The notes under the pieces were generated by a model. The model did no database searches. It was not told the origin of the DNA and saw only the letters and a list, made by a program, of their open reading frames with translations. The translations under genes and the position numbers were made by a program. Of a DNA stretch of 64,000 bases, positions 1 through 24,657 are shown piece after piece. Within the stretch, counting starts at the first letter, position 1, and every line of letters begins with the position of its first letter. Location of the stretch: assembly GCA_965219445.1 (NCBI GenBank), contig CBDCNQ010000004.1, positions 1,088,001 to 1,152,000 of the forward strand, read 5' to 3'. The stretch is from Longimicrobiales bacterium. Its GTDB lineage: Bacteria; Gemmatimonadota; Gemmatimonadetes; Longimicrobiales; Gaopeijiaceae.

Positions 1-41
1 AGCTCTTGTTCCGTGGATCTCGATGGGGGCTGGTCCCATGA
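1..41 (+). CDS. 3' end of upstream gene, probably BatA-like VWA protein (partial)
   Basis: Frame from nt 3 reads LLFRGSRWGLVP*; the TGA overlaps the next ATG (ATGA 38-41); context is a VWA/TPR operon. Confidence 0.5.
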   Translation, partial: LLFRGSRWGLVP

Positions 42-2828: not shown

Positions 2829-4088
2829 CTAGCAGTAGCCGACCGGCGCGTCGATGAGGACCCGTCGCTCCCGCAGTTCCTCGTATCCCGACCCGAGGGT
2901 CTCGCGCAGGATCGGGCCACTCAGGTCCGCCTCCACGGTGATGCGGTCCGGCAGGTACCGGCGGCATTCACCGAACTCTGCCTCGTATTCGGGTGTGGGG
3001 AAGGTGAGCGTCAAGATCGACGACTCGCCGCGCCGTTCAACCCGATACAGCGGGTTGACCGACAGCTGGCCTGTCACGTCACGCTCATCCGTCAGCTCGT
3101 AACGACGAAAGAGATCAGCCCGAGTGCTGGCGACCAGCGTGAGCGACGGCTCGGTGCCGAGCTGCTCGGGCGACATATCTCGCGTCAGGTCGACGACACG
3201 GTGCTCGATCACGTCGTTGAAGATCCGCTCATCGCTGAACAGTCGCGGCTGGAGTGGCTCGAAGAGCGCCCGATACGCCGCTGGCGTGAGCGTGTCGCCC
3301 GCCGAGAAGTTGTCGCCGAGCGCGCTGTGAAGGTGCGGCATCACCACGACGCCATCCGCGCCCGCAAGACGCATCATCTCTTCGGCCAGCAGTCGCTTGT
3401 GCCAGATGTACGGAAACGCGTCGGCGAGGACCACGGTCGAGAACGTCCCGCGAGCGAACGGGAGCGGATGGTTGGCGTCGCAGCAGACCGGTTCGGAGTC
3501 GGGCGCAGTGAACCGGCTGGCGAGCCACAGCTTCCAGAAGTGCACGTCGGCGAGCACCGTGCCCGGGACCAAAGGCCCCCCGGGGGGGCGCAGACCGGCG
3601 AGGACCCGGGTCAGATGACCTGAGCCGCCGCAGAGATCGAGGGTGCGGCCTTGGACGGGCCAGTGTTCCTGGCCGATCGCCCGCAGCAGCGTTTCCCCGG
3701 TCAGAAACGTCGGGTCCGTGAAGCGATAGAGAAAGTACGGGCCCTCGGCGTCGCTGCACAGAATTTCGAGGGCGTCGCGATACGTCGCGGTGTCAAGCGC
3801 CATGAGCGCGCGAAAGCGTTCGCTGCGTGCCGCATCGTCAGAAAGGCCCAGGAGGCCGAAGAGCGCCTCCTCCCCCCGGCCCGCCTCGAGGGCATGCAGA
3901 GCGTGCCGCGTCACATCGTCGGCCATCATCACGGGGATACCGGCGACGACAGGAAAGGCGCAGCACTCGCACGCGAGCACCCCCGCGTCGATGCGGGCGC
4001 CCTCGCGCGTCAGCGCGTCGTTCTCGACGATCGAGACAACGGTACCGCAAAACGGGCAGCGCAGGATGTCCAGGAGGCTTGCGTGCAT
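2829..4088 (-). CDS. Class I SAM methyltransferase with N-terminal Trm112-like Cys-rich domain
   Basis: LLDILRCPFCG...LACECCAFPVVAGIP, then LDLCGGSGH SAM motif and CDANHPLPF. Confidence 0.75.
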   Translation of the reverse strand: MHASLLDILRCPFCGTVVSIVENDALTREGARIDAGVLACECCAFPVVAGIPVMMADDVTRHALHALEAGRGEEALFGLLGLSDDAARSERFRALMALDTATYRDALEILCSDAEGPYFLYRFTDPTFLTGETLLRAIGQEHWPVQGRTLDLCGGSGHLTRVLAGLRPPGGPLVPGTVLADVHFWKLWLASRFTAPDSEPVCCDANHPLPFARGTFSTVVLADAFPYIWHKRLLAEEMMRLAGADGVVVMPHLHSALGDNFSAGDTLTPAAYRALFEPLQPRLFSDERIFNDVIEHRVVDLTRDMSPEQLGTEPSLTLVASTRADLFRRYELTDERDVTGQLSVNPLYRVERRGESSILTLTFPTPEYEAEFGECRRYLPDRITVEADLSGPILRETLGSGYEELRERRVLIDAPVGYC

Positions 4089-4104
4089 GAAAAATCTCAG
4101 CTGC

Positions 4105-4797
4105 TCAGAGCAGCACGGCCGCATTCTCGGCGAGACGCCTGATGAGCCTCAACGCCCGCTCGGCCGGACCGTCGGCCTCGAGCAGCTCCTGTCGGTGGGC
4201 AGGCTCGAGCCGGAGAAGGAGCGAGAGACCGTCGACGACCTGCTCGTCGGAGAGCTCCGGAGGAGGAGGCGGTAGTGGGGGCGAGACGGAGAGGAGGGCT
4301 TCTTCGAGTTCTTGGCGTCTCTGAGCGAGTAGCGGGCGTTCGCTCATCTCGACGGCCTCCGGAAGCGCCTCCACCTCCGCGAGCCGGTAAGAACGGCTCG
4401 CATCCTCGCTCAGGACACGAAACTTCACGAGCCCGGCCAGGACGATGTTGTACCGCCCGTCCGGTAGTTCCTCGACGTCGATGATGACCCCAGCGCAGCC
4501 GACAGAGTAGACCGGGGGTCGTCCTTCGTACTCCGCTTCGTAGCCCGGTTGCAGCAATATCATGCCGATGATGCTGTCGCCTTCGAGTGCGTCGGCCACC
4601 ATCGCGCGGTAGCGCGGCTCGAAGATGTGCAACGGCTGGATGCTGTTTGGAAACAGCACGACGTCCTGAAGAGGGAAGATCGGAATCGTCGCCGGCAGCG
4701 GCCTGGCTTCAGCCGATCCGGATTGGGCCGCGCCGAGACCCGGGGTACACAGGACAGCGATGGGCACGATCGCCCATCCCAGCGTCATGGGTCTCAT
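4105..4797 (-). CDS. LON peptidase N-terminal (substrate-binding) domain protein
   Basis: IPIFPLQDVVLFP...PLHIFEPRYRAMV; no ATPase or protease domain. Confidence 0.85.
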   Translation of the reverse strand: MRPMTLGWAIVPIAVLCTPGLGAAQSGSAEARPLPATIPIFPLQDVVLFPNSIQPLHIFEPRYRAMVADALEGDSIIGMILLQPGYEAEYEGRPPVYSVGCAGVIIDVEELPDGRYNIVLAGLVKFRVLSEDASRSYRLAEVEALPEAVEMSERPLLAQRRQELEEALLSVSPPLPPPPPELSDEQVVDGLSLLLRLEPAHRQELLEADGPAERALRLIRRLAENAAVLL

Positions 4798-5624
4798 GTG
4801 CCGCCTCCTATCGAGACCGGGTTGCCAAAGCGTTCGATGAACACGTCGTTGCGCGAGCCGACCACCGCACGCCGGTAGTGCTCGGTCCCGAGGAGCCGCT
4901 CGGCGTCAAGTTCGTTGAGGTACTCCAGCGCACTCCCGTCCAGCTGCGTTCGGTGGCATCGTAGCGCGGCCAGCTTCCGGCCCGCAAACTCTCCGGCCTC
5001 CACGACGAGTGTCGGCTCGGGCGCCATCGATCCAAACGCATCCGCATCGGCCACACCGAGGACAAGCCTCGGAGGCTCGTCACCACTCTCAGGGCTCTTC
5101 GAGGCCGCATCCACGATGGCACGCATTCTGCCTGCGGGCATGCTGACGTAGCGGAGGGCCGGACCGGCGGCGCCAAGCCGGGCGACCACGGCAGTAGTTC
5201 GTTCATGCACCGCGATGTGGTCAGGATGCCAGTAGAGGCCGTCCTCGTCGAACGTTACGACGACCTGTGGCCGGAACCGGCGGATGGCGCCGAGGATGTC
5301 AGCCTCGAGCCGCGCTCCGTCGATCCAGGGGAGCATGCCATCCTCGTGGTCGAGCAATACAACGTCACGAATGCCGAGAACCCGCGCGGCATCTCCCAGC
5401 TCAGTCGCCCGGGTGTCGCGAAGCCGTGCGCGATCGTGCCTCGGCCCGTGTTCGTGATCCTGCCCCGGACCGTGTTCGCCGTGTGTGAGGCAGAGGAGCG
5501 AGAGCCGCACCCCACATTCGGCACACCGAGCGAGCAGGCCGCCACACGCCAGCGATTCGTCGTCGGGGTGCGCGAAGACCGCCAAAAGGGAAGACCCGCT
5601 CAGATCATCGAGTGGCGTCGACAT
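4794..5624 (-). CDS. PIG-L/LmbE family deacetylase
   Basis: AHPDDE and HPDH metal motifs; K..AL.CH.TQ. Confidence 0.9.
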   Translation of the reverse strand: MSTPLDDLSGSSLLAVFAHPDDESLACGGLLARCAECGVRLSLLCLTHGEHGPGQDHEHGPRHDRARLRDTRATELGDAARVLGIRDVVLLDHEDGMLPWIDGARLEADILGAIRRFRPQVVVTFDEDGLYWHPDHIAVHERTTAVVARLGAAGPALRYVSMPAGRMRAIVDAASKSPESGDEPPRLVLGVADADAFGSMAPEPTLVVEAGEFAGRKLAALRCHRTQLDGSALEYLNELDAERLLGTEHYRRAVVGSRNDVFIERFGNPVSIGGGT

Positions 5625-5625
5625 G

Positions 5626-6666
5626 TCAGGCCGTGCGCTCGGCGCGATGACGCTTCGTGACCAGACGCGAGTAGGCCTCGACGTGTGCCTCGACCATGCG
5701 GTCGGGGCCGAAGCGCTCCACGGCGCGACTCCGCACCCGGCCCCGGTCGAGCGCCAGCACGCGTGGGAGCCCGTCGACGAGTGCGTCGAGCGAGTCGAAG
5801 ATCCCGCCGGTGACACCGTCATCGACGAGCTCACCGACGGCGCCGCGACGAAGCGCGGCAACGGGTGTTCCGCAAGCCATGGCCTCCGCCATGACGAGCC
5901 CGAAGGGCTCACTCGATTGCACGGGATAGAGCAGGGCTCGAGCCCCGCCGAGGAGTGTCACCTTCGCGGCGAGGTCTACCTCGCCGGCGTAGACGACCTG
6001 CCGGCCGTCGACCACGGGCGCGACGACGTCTCGATAGTAGTCATTCGCCGCCGCCGCGAGCATCAGATGCAGGCCGGTCCGTCGGGCTACGTCGATCGCC
6101 TGCAGTACGCCCTTGCCCTCCGTGAAGCGACCGAGAAAGACGAGGTAGTCGTCAGGTTGCGGGCGAAGAACGAACGTGGCCGTGTCCACTGCGTGATGAA
6201 TCGTCCCCACGACGTTGAGTCCGGCGAGCTGCCGCTCTTGCACGGCCGAGATGGCCACGAACGGCGCCGCCGGATAGCGCGACCAGAGCGCAACCTCGGG
6301 CGACGTCGGCGCGTGGTGCAGGGTGAGCAGTAGCGGTGTGGGCGAGAGCCGGGCGAACGCCAGCGATATCGGAGCGTACTCCGCCTGATAGTGAATGATA
6401 TCGAATTCGGCGGCCCGCTCGACGGCAGCGGCGAGGTTGAACAGCTCGCAGAGCTCCCATGGCCACAACGACGTGTCCTCGTGATAACCGGTTGAAAAGG
6501 TCGCTTGGAGCTTGGCAGTCGTCGTCGATGATCCGGTCGCGAAGAGGGTGACTTGGTGGCCTCTAGCTACGAGGCCGTCGGTGAGGAGCGCCGTGACGGT
6601 TTCGACCGAGCCGGACCGGGTCGGCGGTATCGACTGAGCGACCGGGCCGACTACAGCGATACGCAT
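5626..6666 (-). CDS. Glycosyltransferase family 4
   Basis: MRIAVVGP, FLGRFTEGKG, EPFGLVMAEAMACGTPV. Confidence 0.9.
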   Translation of the reverse strand: MRIAVVGPVAQSIPPTRSGSVETVTALLTDGLVARGHQVTLFATGSSTTTAKLQATFSTGYHEDTSLWPWELCELFNLAAAVERAAEFDIIHYQAEYAPISLAFARLSPTPLLLTLHHAPTSPEVALWSRYPAAPFVAISAVQERQLAGLNVVGTIHHAVDTATFVLRPQPDDYLVFLGRFTEGKGVLQAIDVARRTGLHLMLAAAANDYYRDVVAPVVDGRQVVYAGEVDLAAKVTLLGGARALLYPVQSSEPFGLVMAEAMACGTPVAALRRGAVGELVDDGVTGGIFDSLDALVDGLPRVLALDRGRVRSRAVERFGPDRMVEAHVEAYSRLVTKRHRAERTA

Positions 6667-6670
6667 CGTG

Positions 6671-7792
6671 TCATCCGCATGCCTGCTCCAGAAACGGGGG
6701 CAGGACGTGAGACGCGTCGAAACACTCTCGTGCGATCTCAGTGGCACGGCCCGCATGAAGGGAGTAGTCGCTTTCTAGCCGCTCGAGGCCGTCGAGCGCC
6801 TCGTCGAGGGTCGAGAAGCCGATCAGACCGGTGCCCGAAGGGATGTGGGCGCTCCACCCGGTGTCCTGCACAAGAGCCGGTCGCCCGGCCGCCAGGTAGC
6901 ACTCCGTCCGATCGCTGAACCAGCCCGAGCGCCGAGCTACATAGGCGTGCTTGGCGACGCCGAACTCCGCCTTCGAGTCACGGATGAAGTCGCGGTAGTC
7001 CCAGAGCGATCTGGAGACGCCCATCGCGTCGATCGGCGACCAGCCGTGATCCCGGAGCAGCCCCATCGGACCGTTCACCGCGATCTCGATTCGCGACGGG
7101 GTGCGAGACGGTATCTCAATGAACCGAATGAACTCCCGGTCCTTGTCGCCGTCGACATCGGTGAAGCTCTCGGTCTTCCAGGTCATCACAGTGGTGAAGC
7201 GGTCACCGGCCGGCGGCTCGTCGGTGTGCCAGAGCTCGGTCACGACGGGCTGCCGGGTCGGGTGCCAGTCCAAACCGCTCGTCGGCACGTCGCAGGCCGG
7301 CGTGCCGATGTTCGTCCCGAACGTGAACAGACGGTCGAACCGCTGAAAGAACTCGACATACCACTCCTCGCCTTTCGCGATCGCGAGCTGTGTGAACACC
7401 GGGTCCGAGTCGACGAACACCCGGCGCGGGATCGCCGCGTACTCGTCACGCCAGAACCATGAGCCGCCGGAGAGGTTCACGAAGAGGTCGGCCTCGGCGC
7501 AGTAGGCGCGAACGGCATCCTTCGAAAGACCGTGATAAGACCCGTCGTAGTTGACGAAGCTCCAGCGGTCGCCGAGGCCGAACGGCTCGAGCGCTTCATG
7601 GATGTAGCGCGTGCCATAAGCGGGGTCGGTCGCGATCTCGTCGCGCTCCGGGTCGTAGATACACTCGCCAGTGTCCTCGATGTAGAGGACCTCGTGCCCC
7701 AGCGCCCGGAGGCCGAGGAGATACATGAGGGAACACCAGGTGACGCCACCGAACGGATACCGAGCGATGATGCCGGCGAACAGGATCTTCAT
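6671..7792 (-). CDS. GT-B fold glycosyltransferase-like protein
   Basis: GGVTWCSLMYLLGL..LGHEV, GWFSDRTECYLAAGRPALVQDTG; ATGA-coupled to the ABC gene. Confidence 0.65.
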   Translation of the reverse strand: MKILFAGIIARYPFGGVTWCSLMYLLGLRALGHEVLYIEDTGECIYDPERDEIATDPAYGTRYIHEALEPFGLGDRWSFVNYDGSYHGLSKDAVRAYCAEADLFVNLSGGSWFWRDEYAAIPRRVFVDSDPVFTQLAIAKGEEWYVEFFQRFDRLFTFGTNIGTPACDVPTSGLDWHPTRQPVVTELWHTDEPPAGDRFTTVMTWKTESFTDVDGDKDREFIRFIEIPSRTPSRIEIAVNGPMGLLRDHGWSPIDAMGVSRSLWDYRDFIRDSKAEFGVAKHAYVARRSGWFSDRTECYLAAGRPALVQDTGWSAHIPSGTGLIGFSTLDEALDGLERLESDYSLHAGRATEIARECFDASHVLPPFLEQACG

Positions 7793-9612
7793 GTGGTGGC
7801 CCACAGGAGCTCGTCCACCGTACCTATGTCATCGAGCGATTTACCTACCGATAGGCGCGCACACATCCGTCGGTAGAGCTCGCACGTCCTGACCAACTCG
7901 TGATGGCGTCCCTGGGCGACCACCCCCCCCTCGTTCAGCACGACGATGCGCGTGGCGTCGCGGATCGTGGAGAGGCGGTGGGCGATGACGAGCATGGTGT
8001 GGCTAGCGCGGAGCCGCCGCAGGGTGTCGAAAATCGCCCCTTCAGAGATCGCGTCGACTGCCGAGGTCGGCTCGTCGAGAATCAGGATCGGAGCCGCTTT
8101 CAGAAGCGCGCGGGCGATACCGATTCTTTGACGCTCGCCGCCCGAGAGTGTCGCGCCCGCCTCATGGACAGCGGTCTCGTATCCCTGTGGCAGACGAGTC
8201 ACGAAATCGTGAAGGTTCGCGTCTCGTGCCGCGGCCTCGACGTCGGCATCGGAAGCGTCGAGCCGCCCGTACCGGATATTGTCTCCGATCGTGCCGGTGA
8301 ACAGTACCGGCTGCTGCGGGACCAACCCGATCTGCTCACGAAGCGATTTGAGGGAGTACAGGGCAACATCAATGTCGTCGATGAGTACGCGGCCAGTGCC
8401 GGGCTCGAAGAATCTCGGGACGAGGCTGGCGATGGTCGTCTTGCCGGCGCCGGTGAGACCGACCAGGGCCACCAGTTCTCCGGGACGGGCCTCGAAGCTG
8501 ATCGAGTCGAGTACGTTCCGTTGGTCGTCGTAGGCGAAGCTCACTGCATCGAAGCGGACGTGTCCGGCGATGCCGTGGGCGTCGATAGCGTCAGGAGCGT
8601 CGAGAACCTCAGGGGTGAGGGCGAAGATCTCGCGGACGCGGCGAGCGCTCGCGACAGCCTGCTGCAGTGATCCGGCCGAGTGAGCGATCGCCGAGATCGG
8701 GTCGTAGACCGCGGCCAGATACGCGATGACGACGAGCAAGCTCCCGAGCGTCAGCGTGCCATTCAGGACATGGAGTCCGCCCACGATGAGGATCAGAGCA
8801 GTGCCGGCGAGCGTGATCGCGGTCACGGCGACCGAGAAGAGCGATTCCTGCCACGTCAGCCTGAGGCGGGCACGCATGGTGTCATCGCCGGAGCTCGAGA
8901 AGCGCGACAGCTCGTGGCGCTCCCGTGTAAAGCTCTTGACCGCGGCGACCGAGGACAACACCTCGAAGGCGCGCTCGATCAACGTCGCCTCCAGCGCCTT
9001 CACCCGCTCGGCGCGTTCCAGCATGGTACGTGAGTAGAAGCGAAGGCACACATAGAGAAATGGCGCCACCACGAGTGAGAGCAGGGCGAGCGTCAGGTCC
9101 ACGTAGACGAGGACGACGAACATGACCCCCAGATTGAGCATCGCGAGGGCCAACGGAAACACACCACCGATGATCAGGTCGTCCACGCAGTGGGCGTCGG
9201 CATCGAGCCGATAAACCGAATCAGCCGTTGGGGTCAGGACGTGGCGCCGCAACGGGAGCGCCTGGAGGTGTGCCAGCAGCTTGGACCGAAGGGTGTAGAC
9301 GACGCGCTGGGCTACCTGCACCTGCATCTGGGTGTGGATCATGCGGACCACCTCGTTGGCGACCTGGATGAGGAGACCCACCAGGACCACGGCCACGAGG
9401 ATGGCGACAGCGCTGCCAGCGACTGCTAAGGGGACGATGGCCGCCAGCTGTGCCGGGAGGGGGAGACCGCCCAGCACGTAATCCACGATCACCTTGAGCG
9501 GCCAGGGCGCCAGCGCCGCGAGGCCGACCTCCAGGATCGACAGCGCAAGGATCGCTACGGCCTGTCCGCGATACGGTCGAAGGAATCCAAGCGTCCAGGA
9601 AATCACGGTCAC
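7789..9612 (-). CDS. ABC exporter, fused permease/ATPase (MsbA/NdvA-like)
   Basis: TM domain, Walker A GLTGAGKT, LSGGERQR, ILILDEPTS, IAHRLST. Confidence 0.93.
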   Translation of the reverse strand: MTVISWTLGFLRPYRGQAVAILALSILEVGLAALAPWPLKVIVDYVLGGLPLPAQLAAIVPLAVAGSAVAILVAVVLVGLLIQVANEVVRMIHTQMQVQVAQRVVYTLRSKLLAHLQALPLRRHVLTPTADSVYRLDADAHCVDDLIIGGVFPLALAMLNLGVMFVVLVYVDLTLALLSLVVAPFLYVCLRFYSRTMLERAERVKALEATLIERAFEVLSSVAAVKSFTRERHELSRFSSSGDDTMRARLRLTWQESLFSVAVTAITLAGTALILIVGGLHVLNGTLTLGSLLVVIAYLAAVYDPISAIAHSAGSLQQAVASARRVREIFALTPEVLDAPDAIDAHGIAGHVRFDAVSFAYDDQRNVLDSISFEARPGELVALVGLTGAGKTTIASLVPRFFEPGTGRVLIDDIDVALYSLKSLREQIGLVPQQPVLFTGTIGDNIRYGRLDASDADVEAAARDANLHDFVTRLPQGYETAVHEAGATLSGGERQRIGIARALLKAAPILILDEPTSAVDAISEGAIFDTLRRLRASHTMLVIAHRLSTIRDATRIVVLNEGGVVAQGRHHELVRTCELYRRMCARLSVGKSLDDIGTVDELLWATT

Positions 9613-9622
9613 GGGGGCACCA

Positions 9623-12397: not shown

Positions 12398-12406
12398 GCC
12401 GGCCGC

Positions 12407-13534: not shown

Positions 13535-13685
13535 TGGGTCAGGTGATATCGTTGGGCCAGCGTGTGCCCCGAACCGGGGGTCGTGGGCTGGCGAGCCGCT
13601 CCGCTGTTCGCCCCCGGACGCCGGTTCCGGGGCCGTCGGGTGAATGATGCACCTGTGGGAGTCCGGCTGATGAGGTACCCTTGAG

Positions 13686-15311
13686 ATGATCAGGCTCGTG
13701 TCCGCGTGGGTGCTTGTCAATGGGCTGCTCATGACGCCGTTCTGGCTCTCGGGCGCCGTGACGGACGCGCCGGCGCCCGCTTGGCTTTCACTGGAAGCGG
13801 CCCTGATCGTCGGTGCAATGGCTCTCCTGCCGCGACGGCCATGGAGCCGCGGGTTAGCCTGGATCTTGGCCGTGGGACTCGTCGTGTTCGCCGTCGCCGC
13901 GCTCGTGGATCTCCTCTTCCGGGTGAGCCTGGGCCGCCCGCTCAACCTCTCTCTGGACCTCTACCTGATCAGTGCCGTCTACCGCCTCGCGGTGGGGAAT
14001 TCGGGCTTCCTCCGGACCCTCTTCGGGTTCGGGACGATCACCGTCTTGCTCGCCCTGTCGGCGGTCGCGGCGGCCTGGCTCCTGACGCCAGCCCCTTCGG
14101 AAGGCGACAGAACTCTGCCCCGCCTCGTACCGCGGCTCGGCGTGGCGGTCCTCGTGGCCGCGATCACGCTCGGCCTGATCGGTCACAGCGCGCCCGTCGT
14201 CGGACACCGGCTGGCCACACCCGCCGTACGGCTCGTCCTCGAGCAGGCGGAGCAGTTTCGGGCGACTCACAGGGAGCGGGAAGCGTTCGCCGCCGAGCTG
14301 GAGAAGCAGCCCGACGGATTCGCGGACCTGCCCGGGCTACTCTCGAGGCTGGAGGGGGGTAACGTCGTCGTGACGTTCATCGAGTCCTATGGGATGGCCG
14401 CGCTCGAGGACCCTGAGTTGGCGGCGACCATCCGGCCGAGCCTGGACATGGCCGCGGCTCGAATCGAGAGCGCGGGGCTCCACTTCGCGACCGGCGAGCT
14501 CGCCTCCCCCACCCTGGGTGGGCAGTCGTGGTACGCGCATGGGACCATGCTCAGCGGGCTCTGGCTCGAGAATCAGCTCCGCTACGACCTCTTGCTCGCG
14601 AGTAAACGAGAGACGCTGGTCGACGACTTCCGTCGGGCCGGCTACCGCACCGTGGTCGTGATGCCCGCCATCACCACGAACTGGCCCGAGGGGCTCCGAC
14701 TCGGCTACGACGAGGTGTACACGAGGCCTTCCATTCCCTATGCCGGCCCACCCCTCTACTGGGTCACCATGCCGGACCAGTACACATGGTCGTTCCTCGG
14801 GGAGATGGTCCGGGACGCAGTGACCCCGCTCTACGTCGAGGCGGCGATGGTGAGCAGCCACGCGCCCTGGACCCCCGTCCTGCCCCTCCTCGACTGGGAC
14901 TCTGTGGGGGACGGAGCGATCTTCGAACCCTACCGAGAGGATGGGTATCCGCCCGAGGAGCTGTGGATGGACACCCAGGTTCTGCGCGAGAGCTACGCCC
15001 GTTCGCTCGACTACTCGCTTCAAGCGATGGCCGAGTTCGCCGAGCGGTTCCTGGACGAACGGACCCTGCTTGTCGTGCTCGGGGACCACCAGGCGGCTCC
15101 GTGGGTGACGGGGACGAGCGACCCCAACGTTCCGGTGCACGTGTTCACGCGTGACCCCGCCCTGCTCGAGCCCTTTTTCGAGTGGGGGTTCCTCCCCGGC
15201 CCTTTCCCAGACTCAGACGGCTCGCCTCCCGGCATGGACGAGTTCCGCGAATGGTTCGTGCGGGGATTCAGCGGCACTTCCGCCTCCGCCGCTCTTTCGA
15301 TGAAGGAGTGA
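13686..15311 (+). CDS. Membrane-anchored alkaline phosphatase/sulfatase-superfamily protein (LtaS/OpgB-like)
   Basis: About 5 TM helices, then FIESYG, GGQSW, SSHAPW, GDHQ. Confidence 0.75.
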   Translation: MIRLVSAWVLVNGLLMTPFWLSGAVTDAPAPAWLSLEAALIVGAMALLPRRPWSRGLAWILAVGLVVFAVAALVDLLFRVSLGRPLNLSLDLYLISAVYRLAVGNSGFLRTLFGFGTITVLLALSAVAAAWLLTPAPSEGDRTLPRLVPRLGVAVLVAAITLGLIGHSAPVVGHRLATPAVRLVLEQAEQFRATHREREAFAAELEKQPDGFADLPGLLSRLEGGNVVVTFIESYGMAALEDPELAATIRPSLDMAAARIESAGLHFATGELASPTLGGQSWYAHGTMLSGLWLENQLRYDLLLASKRETLVDDFRRAGYRTVVVMPAITTNWPEGLRLGYDEVYTRPSIPYAGPPLYWVTMPDQYTWSFLGEMVRDAVTPLYVEAAMVSSHAPWTPVLPLLDWDSVGDGAIFEPYREDGYPPEELWMDTQVLRESYARSLDYSLQAMAEFAERFLDERTLLVVLGDHQAAPWVTGTSDPNVPVHVFTRDPALLEPFFEWGFLPGPFPDSDGSPPGMDEFREWFVRGFSGTSASAALSMKE

Positions 15312-15313
15312 GT

Positions 15314-15916
15314 GTGACGAAAGGCTTTGGCGCCGGCGCCCGGCTCTTCCACTGGCTCGTCGTGCTCCTCCTGTTGGTGCAGATCCCGGCGGGGATCGCG
15401 ATGATCGCGCCCGCCCTCGAGCAGGGATCGATCGACCGGCTCTTCATCCTGCACAAGGGACTCGGCGTCGTGCTGCTCGTGGTGGTGGTGGCCCGAGTGC
15501 TGTGGCGGCTGACCCACCCGGCGCCGCCGATGTCGGAGACCATCCCGGAGCTGGAACGACGCATCGCGACCATGGCGCATGGGGTCATCTACGGAGTCCT
15601 GGTCCTGGTTGCGGGGAGCGGATACGTGCACGTCGTCGGGGATGGCTTCCCCATCGAGATGATGGACGCGCTCGGGCTGCCGACGCTGCTGCCTCTGATG
15701 CCCGAGGTCGCGTCGTGGGCATCCCTAGTGCACCGGTTCTCGACCTTCCTGCTGGTGGCCCTGGTGTCGGTTCACGTGGGAGAGGTGATGCGGCACCATC
15801 TGGTGGTGCGGGACGGGACGCTGGAGCGGATGTGGCCCCCACTAGGGAGCGGGAGCGCCGCCGCTCCCCCCGAACCGACGCCGGGGGGAGGGACCGGTGG
15901 GGTGGACCCGAGCTGA
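15314..15916 (+). CDS. Cytochrome b561 family protein
   Basis: RLFHW, LHKGLG, LVHR, VHVG histidines in 4 TM helices; RMWP end. Confidence 0.85.
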   Translation: MTKGFGAGARLFHWLVVLLLLVQIPAGIAMIAPALEQGSIDRLFILHKGLGVVLLVVVVARVLWRLTHPAPPMSETIPELERRIATMAHGVIYGVLVLVAGSGYVHVVGDGFPIEMMDALGLPTLLPLMPEVASWASLVHRFSTFLLVALVSVHVGEVMRHHLVVRDGTLERMWPPLGSGSAAAPPEPTPGGGTGGVDPS

Positions 15917-16772
15917 GCGGTGGCTCGGCCTGGTCCGCTCGCTGATCATGTACTGGCGGCCGGGCCGGCAGCGCGGGCTGCGGGAGCTATACCGCCCCTT
16001 CGTCGGAGCGGGGGATCTCGTCTTCGACGTGGGGGCGCACCTGGGCGACCGCACAGCGGCATTCCGGACGCTGGGCGCGCGCGTGGTAGCCTTGGAGCCC
16101 CAGCCCGCCGTGCGCCGCTGGCTCGTACGGCTGGTTGGGCGCAAGCCGGACGTCTCCGTGCGGGCGGAGGCGGTCGGGCGCGCGGTCGGCACCGCACGCC
16201 TGGTGCTGAGCCACCGTACGCCCACCGTGTCCTCGCTGGCCGAGGACTGGCCGAGCACGATGCCGGAACGGAACCGCGGCTTCCGCGGTGTGCGCTGGGA
16301 CGACTCGGTCGAGGTACCGGTGACGACCTTGGACGCGCTGATCGAGCACCATGGACTGCCGCGCTTCTGCAAAATCGACGTGGAGGGGTACGAAGCCGAG
16401 GTGTTGGCCGGCCTGAGCCACCGCATCCCTGCGCTCTCTGTCGAGTTCGTGGCAGGGGCGCTGGACATCGCCCAGGCCTGCGTGCGGAGGCTCGAAGCGC
16501 TGGGTGGGTACGAGTTCAACGCGGTCGTAGGAGAGGAGAGGAGCTTCATGTCGAAGCGGTGGCTTGGGGCCGATGACATGGTCGCCTGGTTGAGGCGCGG
16601 TGGGGCGAGTGTTTCTTCGGGGGACGTCTACGCCCGGCTGAGGAGTGAAGTCGAGCAGAGGGGCGAAGCCGAGCAGAGGGGCGAAACAGACACCGTGAGA
16701 GACGCTGAGTCCGACCGGGGCGCTGGGGACGGCGAGCCCGATCGGGGCGCCGAGGCCGCGAACGATGGCTGA
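15897..16772 (+). CDS. FkbM family methyltransferase
   Basis: FDVGAHLG, ALEP, TTLDALI, KIDVEGYE. Confidence 0.9.
   Translation: MGWTRAERWLGLVRSLIMYWRPGRQRGLRELYRPFVGAGDLVFDVGAHLGDRTAAFRTLGARVVALEPQPAVRRWLVRLVGRKPDVSVRAEAVGRAVGTARLVLSHRTPTVSSLAEDWPSTMPERNRGFRGVRWDDSVEVPVTTLDALIEHHGLPRFCKIDVEGYEAEVLAGLSHRIPALSVEFVAGALDIAQACVRRLEALGGYEFNAVVGEERSFMSKRWLGADDMVAWLRRGGASVSSGDVYARLRSEVEQRGEAEQRGETDTVRDAESDRGAGDGEPDRGAEAANDG
16653..16685. repeat. Tandem duplication with 18-bp period (EQRGEA/EQRGET)
   Basis: GAGCAGAGGGGCGAA at 16653 and 16671. Confidence 0.75.
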
Positions 16773-17577
16773 CGGGGCGGTCCGGTGGTGGCAGTCGCTG
16801 ACGACGGTGGACGCCGGGGCGATCGAGCTGAGCGATCCGGTGGTCGTCCTGCCCATCGCCGCGATCGAACAGCACGGACCACACCTCCCCCTCTCCACCG
16901 ACCTCGATATCGGGCTCGGCTTGCTCTCGGAGGCGTTTCGGCGGCTGCCGGCCGACTTTCCGGCCTGGGCTCTGCCACCGCAGGCAATCGGTTGCAGCCG
17001 GGAGCACGCGCGCTTTCCGGGAACGCTCTCCCTCGAGCCGGACCAGCTCTCCACTCTGATCGAGGAGGCGGGTGACACCCTCGCGCAAATCGGGGTGCGG
17101 CGGATCGTGCTGAGCAACAGCCACGGTGGGAACCGGCCCGCGCTGGAGACAGCCGGTCTCAGGCTTCGCGACGAGCTGGGAATGCTGGTCGTGCACGCGA
17201 GCTGGTTCCGTTTTCCCCCTCCGGAAGACGTGGGTCTCCCTGAGGGGGAGTGGCGTCACGGCCTCCACGGCGGGGCGGTGGAGACGGCCATGATGATGCA
17301 TCTCCAGCCCGATCTGGTGCGCACCTCCGAAGTGGCTCGGGCGCGTTCCCTCGGAGAGGAGTTGGAGGAGACGCTACGCCGGGTGGCTCCGGCGGGTTCG
17401 GCCTCGTTCTCTTGGCTCGCCGGAGATCTCAACCCCGACGGTGTGGTTGGGGACGCGACGCTGGCCGACGCCGATCTGGGGGCGCGGCTCGTGTCGCACT
17501 ACGGGGCGGTGTTGGCGGATGTGATCGAGGACGCGCGGGCGTTCCCCCTGGACCGGCTGGTGGCGGACGCCCCGTGA
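16765..17577 (+). CDS. Creatininase/formamide hydrolase family protein
   Basis: EQHGPHLPLSTD, NSHGGN, HGGAVET. Confidence 0.92.
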   Translation: MADGAVRWWQSLTTVDAGAIELSDPVVVLPIAAIEQHGPHLPLSTDLDIGLGLLSEAFRRLPADFPAWALPPQAIGCSREHARFPGTLSLEPDQLSTLIEEAGDTLAQIGVRRIVLSNSHGGNRPALETAGLRLRDELGMLVVHASWFRFPPPEDVGLPEGEWRHGLHGGAVETAMMMHLQPDLVRTSEVARARSLGEELEETLRRVAPAGSASFSWLAGDLNPDGVVGDATLADADLGARLVSHYGAVLADVIEDARAFPLDRLVADAP

Positions 17578-17604
17578 GCGGTTCCGCGAAGGCGGCGTGT
17601 CCTG

Positions 17605-18513
17605 TTGGCTGAGGTCGACGCCCGGCTCGACGAAGCCGCCGCCTGGGCGCTGGTGCGTGCCGCCGTTCCGCACTCGGCCCTCGAGACCGGGCCTCGTCGT
17701 GTGGCTCATCCCTCGCGCCCGGAACTCTGGCTGGAGTTGAGCGAATCCGGAGGCTGGGATCTGTCGGCCCCACCCACGCCAGCCGCCCGAGATCTACTCG
17801 ACCTCTATCTGCCGCTCACGAGTGGGCCCGATTTCGTCATCGGGCAGCTCGGCCAGAGCCTGGACGGCCGCATCGCGACGGTGAGCGGGAGGTCCCACTA
17901 CATCACCGGACCAGAGGACATCCGCCGCCTCCACCGACTTCGGGCCCTGGTCGATGCCGTGATCGTGGGGGCCGGAACCGTGGCACAGGACGATCCGCTG
18001 CTCACCGTGAGGGAGGTCGAGGGGGAGAATCCGGTCCGCGTGGTGCTCGATCCGGACGGCCGCCTCGGGAAGGACCGCCGGGTCTTCTCGGACCGGGCGG
18101 CCCGGACACTCGTGATGCGGCGCGCGACGGCTCCCCCGGGCCGCTCCCGCGTGCCGAGGGATCAGCGGCCCGGCGCGGGCGAGGTATCGCCAGAGGATGG
18201 CTCCCGAGCCCCGGAGGTCCTCACTCTTTCCGCCTCGGACCCCGAGGGCTTCGAGCCGGGGGCCGTGCTGGAAGCGCTCCGTGCCCGTGGGCTTCGGCGG
18301 GTGCTCGTGGAGGGGGGAGGGGTCACGGTGTCGAGGTTCCTCGATGCCGGCCTCCTCGACCGGCTCCACCTGACCGTCGCGCCTCTCCTGATGGGCTCGG
18401 GCCGTCCGGGCATCACGCTTCCACAGATCGAGAGCCCCGACCAGTCGCTGCGGGTCCGGTGCCGTCACGTACCCCTGGGAGACGACCTCCTCTTCGATCT
18501 CGACCTGAGCTGA
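17605..18513 (+). CDS. RibD C-terminal reductase domain protein (no deaminase domain)
   Basis: QSLDGRIAT, GAGTVAQDDPLLT, VLVEGGG, APLLMGSG. Confidence 0.9.
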   Translation: MAEVDARLDEAAAWALVRAAVPHSALETGPRRVAHPSRPELWLELSESGGWDLSAPPTPAARDLLDLYLPLTSGPDFVIGQLGQSLDGRIATVSGRSHYITGPEDIRRLHRLRALVDAVIVGAGTVAQDDPLLTVREVEGENPVRVVLDPDGRLGKDRRVFSDRAARTLVMRRATAPPGRSRVPRDQRPGAGEVSPEDGSRAPEVLTLSASDPEGFEPGAVLEALRARGLRRVLVEGGGVTVSRFLDAGLLDRLHLTVAPLLMGSGRPGITLPQIESPDQSLRVRCRHVPLGDDLLFDLDLS

Positions 18514-18556
18514 GCAGCACTGGGGATCACGGGGCGCCCAGCCTCAGGGGGGAGGA

Positions 18557-19375
18557 TCACGCGCCTGACCTCGGCGGGAGGGCCAGCAGGTCCACGTGTC
18601 CGACCTCGAGCCCGATCCCGGCGGCGGTCGTGGTGCGGCGGCGTTCGGCCCAATCCCGGATGAGCAGGGCGTCCTGGGGGCGCTGCTCCGAGGCAGCGGC
18701 CGTCCATACGTCGATCAGCTCGCGAAGCAGCGAAGTGTCGGCGTCGCCCAGGCGCCAAGGGCTCGGCCGGAGCCGGGTGTCGAATCCCGCCGCGCGGAAC
18801 GCGCGCTCCGCCGCCGGGCCCGCCGCCGGGCCGAGCGCCGGCCCCATTCCCTTGTCCCGGAGCTGATGGCTCCGCACCGCGTCCGTGACGAGCGCGTCGT
18901 CGGGGTCGGACTCACCCCAGGTCATCGTGCCGTCCCAGGTGAGCGTAAGCAGGGCCGCGTTCCCGGCCGCCCCGCATGCCGCGACGAGCCGCTCCAGCCA
19001 CTCGTGCGTCACCAGGTCCAGCAGCGCGGAGGCCGTCACGAGGTCGGCTCCGGGGACGAGTCCCAACCCTTCTCGGTCCAGCTCGCCCCGAACGCGCTCC
19101 ACCTGAGCCACCCCGGGGACGGCGACGGCCGCGCCCGTCGCCCGGTCGAGCAGCGCGGCGTCCCTGTCCACCAACGTCCACTCCTGCTCGCCCGGGAGCC
19201 GAGGCGCGAGGTAGCGGAGGTTGGATCCGGTGCCGCTGCCCAGGTCGAGCACCCGCCGGCTCGGACGGGACTCCCACCACTCGGTGAGGAGGGCCACGAG
19301 ATCGGCGGCGCGGGAGCGGTGATCCACCGGCTCGCGCAGTACCAGCCAGCCGGCGGTGAACGTCTTCTCACCCAC
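18557..19375 (-). CDS. Class I SAM-dependent methyltransferase
   Basis: WL.LREPVD, VLDLGSGTGSN, TASALLDLV. Confidence 0.85.
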   Translation of the reverse strand: MGEKTFTAGWLVLREPVDHRSRAADLVALLTEWWESRPSRRVLDLGSGTGSNLRYLAPRLPGEQEWTLVDRDAALLDRATGAAVAVPGVAQVERVRGELDREGLGLVPGADLVTASALLDLVTHEWLERLVAACGAAGNAALLTLTWDGTMTWGESDPDDALVTDAVRSHQLRDKGMGPALGPAAGPAAERAFRAAGFDTRLRPSPWRLGDADTSLLRELIDVWTAAASEQRPQDALLIRDWAERRRTTTAAGIGLEVGHVDLLALPPRSGA

Positions 19376-20441
19376 CCGGCGAGATCTCCAGAACGGCCCG
19401 CTCGAAGGCCAGCGCCGCGTCGCTCCAGGTCGGGAGGGAGTGGCCGTGGCGGAGCGAGCCCTCGGCTAGGCCGGCCCTTCGGGCGGCCCCTTCCGGGCCC
19501 GAAACAAGCGCCTGCAGCGCTGCCGCCAGGGCCCGATCGTCCCCGGGGGGAAGGAGCACCCCCGCCTCGGGGGGCACGGTGTCCGGAACCGCTCCTACGT
19601 GCGTGCTCACGATCGGAAGCCCGCGGGCGAGGGCCTCGGCCAGCGCCATACCGTAGCCCTCGTAGTGCGTAGCCAGCACGAAGATCGAGGCGGAGTGATA
19701 GAGCACGTCGAGTTCCGGGGCGCCGAGCTCGCCGGGGAAGTCGATCCGGTCCTCCAGATTCAGCTCTCGCACCAGCGCCAGCACCGAGTCGGCGAATTCG
19801 GGCGTGTGCGTCAGGCTCCCGGCGCAGAGGCAGCTCCAGGGGAGGGCGGGGATGCGGGCGAGCGCGCGAACCAGCACGTCCTGCCCCTTTCGGGGGCTCA
19901 CCGAGCCCACGCACAGCAGGCGGGGAGGCTCGCCGGGCCCGGGGCCTACCGCGGCCTGCACCGGGTCCGTCCCGGGCGGTACCACGCGGACGCGCGAGGC
20001 CGGGACGCCGTACGCCCCGAGCCGGCGCGCCGTGAAGGCGCTCGTCACGAGCGCCCCGGCGCACTGCGCCAGAGACTCGCTCTCCAACCGGGCGAGACGC
20101 GAGCGCTCGGCGGACTCCAACCCCGTCTCGTCGGCAAGGGGATGGTGAATGAGGGCGATCAGTCGAAGGCGATCTGGGTGCGCCCGGAGAGGATCGGGAA
20201 GGGGGCTCATGGCGAGACCGTCCAGGACCACCCAGGCGCCCTGGGGGATCTCAGCAAGGGTGTGGGCGAGGCTGGACTCCGCGCACGCGTCGCCCTCGGG
20301 GAACGCGCCCTCGAGCCCGTGGGCGATCACCGTCCAGCCCAACGCGGTCAGGCCCTCGGCGATCCGCGCGTCGTAGAGGTAGCCGCCGGTCCGCTGCTCG
20401 AGCGGCCCGGGGACGATCAGATGAAGCTCACGCGCGCTCAA
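19368..20441 (-). CDS. Glycosyltransferase family 4
   Basis: [31 protein letters not shown]. Confidence 0.9.
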
Positions 20442-20836
20442 ACCGACCCTTCGTAGGACGCCCAGGCCACGTGCGACTCGTGAAGCGTCACGCTCAGCCG
20501 CTGGAGACCCTGCGCTCCGTCTCCGAGGTGGCCCCCTCGGATCGCTTCTACGAGCCGATCGAAGATGGTGCGCGCCAGGAACTCGGTCGTCGTGTTCTGC
20601 CCCGTGAACGCCACCTCGTCGTCCAGGTTCCGGTAGTCGAGCTCCGCGAGGACCGCCTTCAGGCTCGCGCTGGCGAGCCCGATGTCGACGACCAAGCCGT
20701 CAGCGTCGAGCTCGTCGCGCCTGAAGGTGGCGTCGACCACGTAGGTGGCTCCGTGGAGCCGCTGGGCCGGTCCGAAGACCTCGCCCCGGAAGCTGTGGGC
20801 GATCATGAAGTGATCGCGAACGTTCAAGCTATACAA
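20438..20836 (-). CDS. 6-pyruvoyl-tetrahydropterin synthase/QueD-fold protein, PTPS-IV-like
   Basis: [48 protein letters not shown] start after GGAGA. Confidence 0.88.
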
Positions 20837-20867
20837 CGATTTGGTCTCCAGGCGGCTCCGGGCCGCA

Positions 20868-20901
20868 GTCAGGGTTGAGCGTACCGTCAGGGTTGAGCGT
20901 A
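20868..20901. repeat. Duplication of dehydrogenase 3' end including stop codon (18-bp period)
   Basis: GTCAGGGTTGAGCGTA at 20868 and 20886. Confidence 0.8.
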
Positions 20902-21879
20902 GCGGATGCGGTGACACAGGACCCCCCGCCCGTCCTCGGCGAGGCGGCCCATCACCTCCGGGAGCGTCTCGAAGTCGCTCTCTCCCGAGATGAGGAGGTC
21001 GAGCCGCTCGTCGCAGAGGAGGTCGAGCGCGACCCCGAGCCGGCGAGAGTGATCCCAGCGCGGAGCCCGCTCCGCGGGGATGCCGCCCACCTGGCTGCTC
21101 CGGAGGGTGAGCCGGCGGGAGTGGAACGCCTCTCCCAGAGGGAGCGGAACGGACCGGGTGCCGTACCAGCTCAGCTCGACCACCGTGGCCTCGACACCTG
21201 CCACCGACAGGGCGGCTTCGAGGCCCTGCGGGCTTCCGCTCGCGTGGAAGACGAAATCGGCGTCGGCCCCGGCCGGGGCCCGATCGGAGAATTCCAGCCC
21301 CAGACCCCGGGCCACGCTCTCTCGTGAGGGGTCGACGTCCACCAGGCTCACTCGAGCCGCGGGAATCTGACGGCACAACCACGCGACGAGGAGCCCCACG
21401 ACCCCACCCCCGATTACGACGATCCTGTCGCCAGCCGAGGGTCGCGCGTCCCACACCGCGTTGAGGGCGGTCTCCATGTTCGCGCCGAGGACGGCGCGCT
21501 CGGGAGGCAGGCCGTCCGGCAGCACGCGCACGACCCTCGCCGGCACCAGATAGAGGTCCTGGTGAGGGTGGAGGCAGAAGACGTGCCGCCCGAGGAGCGA
21601 GGGTTCAGGCCGTTCCGGCGCCTCGAGGACTTCGCCCACGTTGCTGTACCCATATTTCACGGGCCCGGGAAAGTCGCCCTCTTGGAACGGCGCCCGCATC
21701 ACCTGGTGCTGGGACGGCGGCACCTCGCCCCGAAAGACTAGCGACTCCGTACCTCGGCTGATGCCGGAGTAAAGAGCACGCACGAGCACTTGGTCCGGCT
21801 CGCGGCTACCGAGCGGCGACGTGACGATTTCTCCGCGGCCCGGAGCATGGATCCAGAATTGGCGAGTGGTTCTCGGCAC
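20887..21879 (-). CDS. Zinc-binding alcohol dehydrogenase (MDR) family protein
   Basis: [20 protein letters not shown] Rossmann motif, SWYG. Confidence 0.88.
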
Positions 21880-21915
21880 GAGCGTTCTCGTTCCTCCGAA
21901 GTTAATGTCGTTCCC

Positions 21916-22680
21916 ATGAGTCGGACTACTTGGACGCAATCTCCGCCTCCCACTTCAAGGGAGGGCCCCTCGTGGCCGGTGGGCGATGTGGCGCTGGGGC
22001 TCCTACCCCTCTTGGGTGTGTCCCTCGCAACTTGCCGGATGCTCGCCCTTCCGACCAGCCACGCGTTTCTCGTCGTCGCGCCGTACGCCGCACTGGGCGC
22101 GCTGCTGCTCGCTAAGCTGCCACCCTCACACCCCGGGCCCGGCTTGGGGCCCGCCAACCGGCTGACGCTGGCCCGCGCCACTCTCGTGCTGCCTCTTGCG
22201 ACGCTGGCTCTCTTGCCCGGCAAGTTCACGGGAGCGGGCTACTGGTGGATCGTGGGGCTGTCCACAATAGCGCTGGTGCTGGACGGGCTCGACGGACACC
22301 TCGCGCGGCGAACCGGCACGGAGAGCGCCTTCGGAGCCCGCTTCGACCTGGAGCTCGACGCATTCCTGCTCCTGACGCTGTCCGCGTTGGTTTGGCGGAG
22401 CGGGAGCGTGGAGTCCTGGGTCCTGCTCGTCGGTGGGCTGCGATACCTCTTCGTACTCGGAGGGCTGTTGTGGCCAACGCTCCGGGGGGCGCTGCCGCCG
22501 AGCCTGCGGCGGAAGGTGATTTGCGTGGTGCAGGGGATCGTGCTCGTCGTCTGCCTGGCCCCCGTGACCCGGCCTGCGCCGGCCACCGCGCTCGCAGCCT
22601 CGGCCCTGCTCCTCCTCGTCTATTCGTTCGTCGTCGACACCTTGTGGCTGGCGCGGAGCCACGAGGGCAAGATCCAGTGA
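21916..22680 (+). CDS. CDP-alcohol phosphatidyltransferase family protein
   Basis: AN.LT..R and DGLDGHLARRTGTESAFGARFDLELD signature. Confidence 0.93.
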   Translation: MSRTTWTQSPPPTSREGPSWPVGDVALGLLPLLGVSLATCRMLALPTSHAFLVVAPYAALGALLLAKLPPSHPGPGLGPANRLTLARATLVLPLATLALLPGKFTGAGYWWIVGLSTIALVLDGLDGHLARRTGTESAFGARFDLELDAFLLLTLSALVWRSGSVESWVLLVGGLRYLFVLGGLLWPTLRGALPPSLRRKVICVVQGIVLVVCLAPVTRPAPATALAASALLLLVYSFVVDTLWLARSHEGKIQ

Positions 22681-24435: not shown

Positions 24436-24657
24436 TGAAGCACCTCCTTGCGCCATATTGTGCGTTACCGGAACCGCGCCCGAGGTGAAGCCACGGAGAA
24501 GATGGGCCGCACCGCAATGCCGAGCAAGCAAGTGGATTTTTTTCTACTCAGTCCACGAGTAGCATTGTATCTTGTCTATGAACCACCCCACCCGGCCATT
24601 CTGCCCAACCAGTTGGCGTCCGAGTTAGGGGAATACCCTGTGCTTCGGAGGCTGGAA

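Follow-up and report, generated by a model that had tools for sequence, protein, structure and literature searches.

Gene content of the locus

Positions 2829 to 22680 of the window, the 64,000-nucleotide (nt) stretch of a Longimicrobiales bacterium genome that was analysed (contig CBDCNQ010000004.1, positions 1,088,001 to 1,152,000), hold a gene cassette of orphan function alongside a second, undescribed one that probably makes a glucan and seems to take the place of OpgGH; the combination is real, recurs in other genomes and is modular. The first, the PTPS-IV (SCO6650-type) cassette, is called module A throughout, and the second, which combines a fusion of a glycoside hydrolase with a family 2 glycosyltransferase (GH-GT2), an ATP-binding cassette (ABC) exporter, further glycosyltransferases (GT), a PIG-L protein and a methyltransferase (MT), is called module B. 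The original prediction for this DNA counted 18 contiguous genes in this range, and all are present with the families it named, as assigned by open-reading-frame (ORF) listing, translation, and Pfam and NCBIfam scans (Table 1); one of the 18, a cytochrome b561 gene, had gone unnamed. Gene starts were picked from the translations with homologue starts as a guide, and close homologues of the window genes are labelled Gemmatimonadota or Longimicrobiales.

Four transcription units are predicted, running from ribA to MT1 (minus), from the LtaS-like gene to RibD-C (plus), from the dehydrogenase (ADH) to MT2 (minus), and the CDP-alcohol phosphotransferase by itself (plus), with ribA and the LtaS-like gene divergent and 151 nt apart. 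The ribA gene (13534-12407) had been said to end 9 nt before GH-GT2 (12397-9623) and to head a tightly packed run, and both statements were borne out, the successive distances on the minus strand being 9, 10, −4 (ABC/GTx overlap), 4, 1 (GT4a/PIG-L), −4 (PIG-L/LON-N overlap) and 16 nt (LON-N/MT1). Although ribA heads the module B run here, it belongs to module A and stays with A where B is inverted, as in the second cluster copy of genome G014. Two further frames, a long plus-strand ORF (11174-13546) and an extension of ribA by 137 codons upstream, were set aside as shadows of real genes, and a promoter and terminator scan of the window gave a signal no higher than that of shuffled sequence.

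Table 1 Genes of the cluster and the adjoining phosphatase gene, with the basis of each assignment
Gene or product	Module	Coordinates	Strand	Basis or remark
EEP-family phosphatase/phosphodiesterase	outside 18-gene range	1902-2816	+	PF03372; hydrophobic, signal-peptide-like N-terminus
MT1, Trm112-like N-terminus and class I S-adenosylmethionine methyltransferase	B	2829-4088	-	weak NCBIfam Trm112; Atlas Methyltransf_11 clusters
LON substrate-binding domain protein (LON-N)		4105-4797	-	PF02190
PIG-L/MshB-like de-N-acetylase	B	4794-5624	-	PF02585
GT4a	B	5626-6666	-	nearest solved relative is the alpha-1,2-glucosyltransferase Tll1591
GTx, unclassified GT-B-fold glycosyltransferase	B (marker)	6671-7792	-	predicted structure
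MsbA-type ABC exporter	B	7789-9612	-	PF00664+PF00005
GH-GT2 fusion, predicted glucan synthase	B	9623-12397	-	PF02836+PF00535
RibA paralogue	A, heading the B run	12407-13534	-	PRK08815-like GTP cyclohydrolase II, long N-terminal region
LtaS/EptA-fold membrane phospho-headgroup transferase (predicted)	A	13686-15311	+	weak PF00884; predicted fold
Cytochrome b561	A (accessory)	15308-15916	+	PF01292
FkbM-family methyltransferase	A	15897-16772	+	PF05050, TIGR01444
Creatininase-family amidohydrolase	A	16765-17577	+	PF02633
RibD C-terminal reductase (RibD-C) without deaminase domain	A (core)	17605-18513	+	PF01872
MT2, class I methyltransferase	A (core)	18557-19375	-	family scan; after GT4b in most loci
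GT4b glycosyltransferase	A (core)	19368-20441	-	PF00534
PTPS-IV T-fold protein, SCO6650 orthologue	A (marker)	20438-20836	-	FGPAQ signature; PDB 3D7J
MDR dehydrogenase (ADH), BchC-like	A (core)	20887-21879	-	weak TIGR01202
CDP-alcohol phosphotransferase	A	21916-22680	+	PF01066

The PTPS-IV cassette

Module A is an orphan PTPS-IV cassette of the SCO6650 type. Its PTPS protein scored 192 bits against the SCO6650 structure (3D7J) and carries FGPAQ, and genes with PF00925 (GTP cyclohydrolase II, GCH II) and PF01872 neighbour it as in the SCO6650-type cluster; the accessible part of PMC5445326 gives FGPAQ as the PTPS-IV signature and GCH II and RibD-C as typical neighbours. The structure of SCO6650 has been solved, yet the literature searched holds no established pathway for PTPS-IV. 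No published report of a product for the PTPS-IV cluster, of its coupling to glucan genes or of an OpgH-RibA fusion was found in a search that most subscription papers lay outside. The window shares with the SCO6650/SCO6655 cluster of Streptomyces coelicolor the ADH-PTPS-GT4-MT core and the CDP-alcohol transferase, and differs from it in adding the LtaS-like enzyme, cytochrome b561, FkbM and the glucan cassette.

The window ribA and PTPS genes are paralogues, since the source genome has a housekeeping ribD...ribBA-ribH operon elsewhere (ribD...ribBA at C2:88119-91058) and a second PTPS-family gene, presumed to be queD, on contig C5. In an alignment to E. coli RibA (2BZ0) the RibA paralogue keeps the three zinc cysteines and the tyrosine of the IRAY motif. 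Methionine in place of that tyrosine marks the formyl-retaining GCH II of the SCO6655 type; the window protein does not have it, tyrosine being present in it and in 41 of 42 scored RibA homologues, and methionine solely in the Streptomyces locus. A second position does differ, in that the HSEC of the housekeeping enzyme is HSAC in the window RibA; HSAC or HSSC is the usual form among the paralogues, and alanine occupies the glutamate position in 99 of 99 OpgH-RibA fusions. This change from glutamate to alanine or serine may alter substrate or product. A third RibA of S. coelicolor has a function unrelated to flavin, according to the accessible part of PMC13151069.

Among the other enzymes, RibD-C had its best PDB match in the DARP reductase 6P8C (93 bits; DARP, 2,5-diamino-6-ribosylamino-4(3H)-pyrimidinone 5′-phosphate), the dehydrogenase conserves SRGTE and KYGY and has no conserved cysteine among 107 sequences, and the creatininase retains its metal-site motifs and matches creatininases in the PDB. 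The GT4b gene lies directly behind the PTPS-IV gene from Haloarcula to Streptomyces. The CDP-alcohol transferase has the complete D-x2-DG-x2-AR...G-x3-D-x3-D motif and matches PssA and CPT1, so weakly that they give no clue to its substrate. Because a profile of the LtaS-like protein gave no significant match to PDB sequences, a fold search was needed; no NCBIfam model matched the protein either. With its model (predicted local distance difference test score, pLDDT, 88.9), Foldseek retrieved MCR-1 (TM-score 0.53) and also LtaP, LtaS, EptA and GacH, and the protein is thus, as modelled, of the EptA/LtaS-type fold, with an N-terminal transmembrane bundle, an alkaline-phosphatase fold and the metal ligands kept. 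Residues E233, H392 and D467-H468 are invariant among 47 sequences.

The GH-GT2/ABC cassette

The GH-GT2 protein consists of a GH barrel, then the GT2 domain, then a few transmembrane segments. The barrel belongs to clan GH-A and has both glutamates (NE, AEAG), with N127-E128 and E213 invariant in 30 sequences, and its nearest structures are PDB 9FZ9 (E 4e-15) and GH158 (5e-9), which we take to be a beta-1,3-glucanase family. The first strong transmembrane segment is at residue 595, with none ahead of the GT2 domain and no signal segment; with so few such segments, and none before GT2, synthesis of the product probably takes place on the cytoplasmic side, with the ABC protein as its exporter. 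NdvB (GT2-GH17) and Cgs, with the exporter NdvA, are cyclic beta-glucan systems. NdvB/NdvA likewise has a GT2 fused to a retaining GH barrel and an adjacent ABC exporter, whereas the window GH domain is GH2_C/GH158-like rather than a periplasmic GH17 domain, its protein lacks transmembrane segments before residue 595, and its cassette has extra GT, deacetylase and methylase genes. The ABC exporter reached the cut-off of none of the NCBIfam families shown, the NdvA/ChvA-type equivalogs among them (334 of 733 bits for the glucan exporter PRK13657, and 254 of 585 bits). No Cgs-like synthase (PF10091) was found in the source genome.

GTx matched no Pfam or NCBIfam model, and its predicted structure (pLDDT 81.7) found GT-B enzymes at a TM-score of about 0.6. 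GT4a scored 238 bits against Tll1591 (7FG9) and 84 bits against tetrahydrobiopterin glucosyltransferase, a distant relative; a role of GT4a as a pterin glucosyltransferase was accordingly not used as a link. The PIG-L protein keeps HPDDE and HPDH in at least 93% of 75 sequences.

The make-up of module B is seen in the best 80 of 280 GTx loci from GTDB, among which the ABC gene recurs in 79, GT4a in 76, PIG-L in 67, MT1 in 65 and GH-GT2 in 52; where GH-GT2 did not adjoin GTx, it lay elsewhere in the genome in the five cases tested. The LON-N gene had been counted with the run, and this did not hold: it occurs in 2 of the 80 loci, is absent from G006, G007, G011 and G014, and is an incidental insertion. 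The EEP gene, outside the 18-gene range, recurs with the cluster (32 of 80). O-acylation genes of the MBOAT and AlgX types adjoin module B in 12 of the 80 (among them L071, L077, L081, L085, L121, L254 and L256), and in some of these loci they separate MT1 from the LtaS-like gene. In Acidobacteriota many GH-GT2 proteins are extended at the C-terminus by an NHL propeller, to about 1250-1340 residues (L060:1985-5770, L071, L078, L121). A distant GH-GT2/ABC/GTx cassette, often with multiple GTx copies and with unassigned genes between ABC and GTx, mostly occurs without module A (L229-L236, L242, L243).

Linkage of the two modules

The original prediction held that the modules form one pathway, and took adjacency confined to a single genome, with independent distributions, as the genomic part of its refutation; the modules proved to be linked in many genomes and co-distributed. 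They adjoin in G006, G007, G010 and both copies of G014, which has two complete A+B clusters, 78-90% and 45-75% identical to the window (L029-L032), with B inverted in the second. Among the 80 GTx loci, 27 reach ribA and show several distinct gene orders, among them an arrangement in which A is interrupted midway by B. Recurrence in two phyla and in several gene orders indicates that adjacency is more than chance. Of the 47 loci with full flanks, 40 have the LtaS-like gene no further than 10 kb from GTx, and the other 7 have no A gene in range. Fifty of the 80 genomes, mostly Acidobacteriota, were searched for PTPS-IV, which was present in 46; in these it lies within 25 kb of GTx in 23, at 40 kb in 1, is probably linked in 1, and is far away on one contig in 4 and on other contigs in 17.

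A background sample of 201 Vicinamibacterales genomes (the order of G052) was then scored, with the threshold for a close GTx set after a gap in the scores (529 versus 306 bits) had been seen. PTPS-IV was found in 53, a close GTx in 43, both in 35 and neither in 140, so that PTPS-IV accompanies a close GTx in 35 of 43 genomes and is present in 18 of the 158 that lack one (odds ratio 34). A distant GTx alone was found in 8 further genomes, 2 of them with PTPS-IV. In the 35 co-carriers the two markers lie within 25 kb in 14, at 40 kb in 1, far apart on one contig in 5 and on different contigs in 15. The LtaS-like gene is present in 53 of the 201 genomes, 51 of which also carry PTPS-IV; of the remaining two, G105 has a divergent module A and in G139 the gene is a fragment at a contig end. 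Where module A is split, the LtaS-like gene stays beside the glucan genes in G119, G149, G271, G207, G185 and G090.

Some form of functional coupling between the modules is therefore likely, given that they adjoin in many genomes and are co-distributed, together with the RibA-OpgH fusion described below and the LtaS-like fold. A single pathway is too tight a description, since module A is a stand-alone cassette with exchangeable partners (B, OpgGH, or none found) and B also occurs without A.

Partner exchange with OpgGH and the OpgH-RibA fusion

Osmoregulated periplasmic glucans are made by the OpgG/OpgH system and receive phospholipid-derived substituents from OpgB, OpgE and CgmB. These systems pair a glucan synthase with an alkaline-phosphatase-fold membrane transferase, as the window is predicted to do, the difference being that in the window the head group would come from GTP and be supplied by a lipid dedicated to it. 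Neither opgG nor opgH was matched in the source genome (92% complete), whereas relatives carry module A beside real OpgGH genes. OpgG and OpgH occur in the same 8 of the 201 Vicinamibacterales genomes; all 8 carry PTPS-IV, none is among the 43 with module B, and in all of them about 300 nt at most separate opgG from the LtaS-like gene. Among A carriers, OpgGH and a close GTx were never found together, against 5.3 genomes expected. In one OpgGH genome, G101, a distant GH-GT2 is present as well, lying among ORFs that resemble insertion sequences. In a second sample, 251 genomes of the phylum Gemmatimonadota, three carry PTPS-IV, two with a close GH-GT2 (unlinked in G390) and one with an OpgH 10 kb away, the sole OpgH found in the 251; OpgG was found in 4 of 5 same-family genomes with module A but no GTx. 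Module B thus looks like a replacement swapped in for OpgGH as the glucan partner of module A.

In G021 the LtaS-like gene is followed by divergent opgG and by one ORF that encodes OpgH and then RibA. This single-ORF fusion is also present in G018 and G013, and G017 lacks it. A search with the window RibA found 157 long homologues, and among the 120 listed 99 are OpgH-RibA fusions, with a median pairwise identity of 54% (range 45-96%) among the matches listed. Members of the family (L034:2210-5407, L250:2944-5955, L251:1-2625, P0121-P0218 and P0220) are about 1000 residues long, are annotated just as MdoH, and where named come mostly from Gemmatimonadota. RibA is also fused to FolE (GTP cyclohydrolase I), with Lautropia mirabilis as a named member; other fusions are HAD-GT4-RibA, in a eukaryote, and CDP transferase-RibA (P0221-P0237 and P0240; P0238; P0239). 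On a quick tree, from which we claim no direction of partner change, the window RibA falls in a clade with 98% support that comprises 27 B-linked, 18 OpgH-fused, 8 Opg-linked and 3 unassigned rows; at least three changes are needed to account for the B label.

The module A cassette is also present on 23 plasmid records; GTx matched no plasmid. Five of the records were opened (Thiodictyon, Streptomyces, Rhizobium, Haloarcula and Methylosinus). In the Methylosinus locus mdoH adjoins the dehydrogenase gene, and 80 metagenome loci, the best of 582 ranked to this seed and many of them short, show the same arrangement: an OpgH-like gene lies upstream of the dehydrogenase gene, where other loci have the CDP transferase, in 49 of the 52 informative ones, and OpgG is found in none of the 80. 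These loci of the alphaproteobacterial type strengthen the tie of module A to glucan synthases. Nearby they also hold FkbM, cytochrome c and HAD genes (L127, L149-L228) and recurrent genes for proteins with multiple transmembrane segments and weak or no GT-C-like matches.

A proposed pathway and its alternatives

We propose that A and B jointly make an envelope glucan bearing a phospho-linked, GTP-derived group that is delivered by a lipid carrier, a scheme for which we judge the case evenly balanced; the identity of the ring compound, the lipid carrier and the acceptor is what we infer from sequence. RibA would open GTP to give DARP, which the RibD-C domain would reduce to the ribityl form, and the creatininase may take off a formyl group. 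The zinc-less dehydrogenase and PTPS-IV would remodel the side chain and might in doing so close a neopterin-like ring; glycosylation by GT4b and methylation by MT2 would yield a compound that we call X. This could be either a pterin, if ribityl oxidation and ring closure lead to a neopterin-type skeleton, or an unfused pyrimidine. The CDP-alcohol transferase would load X on a phospholipid to give phosphatidyl-X, while module B would make a short beta-glucan on the cytoplasmic side, to be branched, de-N-acetylated, methylated and exported by the ABC protein. Outside the inner membrane, the LtaS/EptA-fold enzyme would transfer X-phosphate from lipid to glucan, much as OpgB and OpgE put glycerol- and ethanolamine-phosphate on periplasmic glucan. 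Cytochrome b561, which recurs with module A in the Rhizobium, Thiodictyon and Vicinamibacterales loci and in 13 of the 80 metagenome loci, hints for that reason that X is redox-active, and if so may recycle it. The GTP-derived ring, GT4 glycosylation and O-methylation have a precedent in the pterin glycosides (cyanopterin, biopterin glucoside) and excreted periplasmic pterins, which start from GTP cyclohydrolase I where the window pathway would start from II; the accessible part of PMC13259868, from which this comparison is drawn, does not describe binding to glucan or lipid.

Several observations weigh against this scheme. That GH-GT2 makes a glucan is itself a step that we infer. Around module A on the Thiodictyon, Streptomyces, Rhizobium and Haloarcula plasmids no glucan synthase is annotated or matched, and the Streptomyces and Haloarcula loci have no LtaS-like gene. 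Near the Methylosinus-type loci a CDP transferase was found in 1 of 80 and an LtaS-like gene in none, so that a lipid-carrier route is not universal. In the Vicinamibacterales, 10 of the 53 PTPS-IV carriers have neither a close GTx nor OpgGH, though 2 of these have GH-GT2 with a distant GTx and several of the genomes are small or fragmented; conversely, 8 of the 43 module B carriers, all with GH-GT2, lack PTPS-IV. Of the 20 genomes that do not link GTx to PTPS-IV within 40 kb, 15 have the LtaS-like gene together with PTPS-IV and 5 have it together with GTx. A distant GH-GT2 match without PTPS-IV was found in 12 Gemmatimonadota genomes, and the 7 that were opened have the GH-GT2/ABC/GTx cassette with module A not nearby. 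Finally, kin genomes are not independent, and the co-occurrence statistics are overstated to that extent. As a candidate partner where A has neither B nor OpgGH, a Cgs-like cyclic beta-1,2-glucan synthase was tried and rejected: PF10091 was present in 3 of 5 such genomes, and the comparison is uninformative because it was also present in 6 of 10 controls.

A less probable alternative is that OpgH or GH-GT2 uses X directly as acceptor and extends it by an oligoglucoside tail, with the CDP transferase and LtaS-like genes as an optional second delivery route. MftF builds such a tail on mycofactocin, a system that likewise combines a creatininase-family hydrolase and a GT2, and MftE and MftF are the best NCBIfam matches of the window creatininase and GT2, both below cut-off (129 of 172 and 160 of 280 bits, respectively). 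Mycofactocin differs in its radical-SAM and peptide genes (MftA/B/C), which are not among the 18, and the window scaffold would derive from GTP. The position of RibA at the cytoplasmic end of OpgH in the fusion fits direct priming, as does the OpgG-less OpgH-like gene that fills the CDP transferase slot in Methylosinus-type loci; a fusion alone, however, is no proof of substrate channelling, the LtaS-like gene adjoins glucan genes in Gemmatimonadota and Vicinamibacterales, and the 8 genomes with B and without A fit poorly.

It is also unlikely that module A makes its own free small molecule or membrane lipid and that the glucan genes merely travel with it, through a common envelope or osmotic stress response or a shared island, with no joint product. 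The four plasmid loci without glucan genes, the 10 carriers with neither partner, and the 20 of 35 co-carriers whose assemblies do not link the two markers within 40 kb are what this explanation would lead one to expect, but it leaves unexplained that OpgGH never occurs without A in the 201 and 251 genomes, that OpgGH and B are mutually exclusive in A carriers, and that a diverse OpgH-RibA fusion family exists.

That module A backs up or feeds the synthesis of a known cofactor (F420, riboflavin, folate or queuosine) is highly improbable: the accessible parts of the sources assign PTPS-IV to F420 synthesis from an unpublished result (PMC5041015) and a creatininase-family formamidase to riboflavin synthesis in Sinorhizobium (PMC9478397), RibA-FolE fusions exist, and a CofG-like FO synthase is present in 3 of 5 A carriers tested, but CofD was found in none of the five, CofG in neither the source genome nor G021, the housekeeping rib operon and second PTPS gene lie elsewhere, and none of those pathways has a use for the GT4, methyltransferases, CDP transferase or LtaS-like enzyme. 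An F420 role was rejected for the source genome, in which neither CofG/FbiC nor CofD was found. The cluster does not have the make-up of a riboflavin operon (ribE, ribH, intact ribB, a deaminase and a flavin mononucleotide (FMN) riboswitch); the housekeeping operon is on C2, and Rfam gave no match, and thus no FMN riboswitch, in the window. Three Vicinamibacterales genomes (G058, G082, G100) have a fused CofG-type FO synthase and no CofD match.

Flanking genes

Upstream of the EEP gene, window positions 2-1893 (plus strand) encode VWA (BatB-like) and TPR-like proteins that are not kept with the cluster. On the other side, convergent with the CDP transferase gene, 22711-24531 (minus) encodes a secreted-looking protein with a carboxypeptidase-regulatory-like domain, a Vgb-like propeller and a possible c-type heme motif (CVRCH); it was not found beside the cluster in relatives.

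Implications

The exchange of two unrelated glucan systems beside module A, together with the OpgH-RibA fusion, points to the periplasmic glucan and lipid fractions as the place to look for the PTPS-IV product. Decoration of periplasmic glucans with head groups is already known as a kind of system; should the tag turn out to be a redox-active heterocycle, there is a fair chance that this one is categorically new. Carried further, and only tentatively, the scheme would have several phyla tether a redox-active GTP-derived group of pterin or pyrimidine type to periplasmic glucans via a dedicated phospholipid donor, recycled by cytochrome b561, as a polymer-bound periplasmic redox buffer, from a cassette that plugs into either OpgGH or the unrelated GH-GT2/ABC system. 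The known substituents of periplasmic glucans are glycerol-phosphate, ethanolamine-phosphate, choline-phosphate, succinate and acetate. If the proposed pathway is true, a nucleotide-derived group would be added to this short list, and uncultured Gemmatimonadota and Vicinamibacterales would possess a new GH-GT2 family of glucan synthases.

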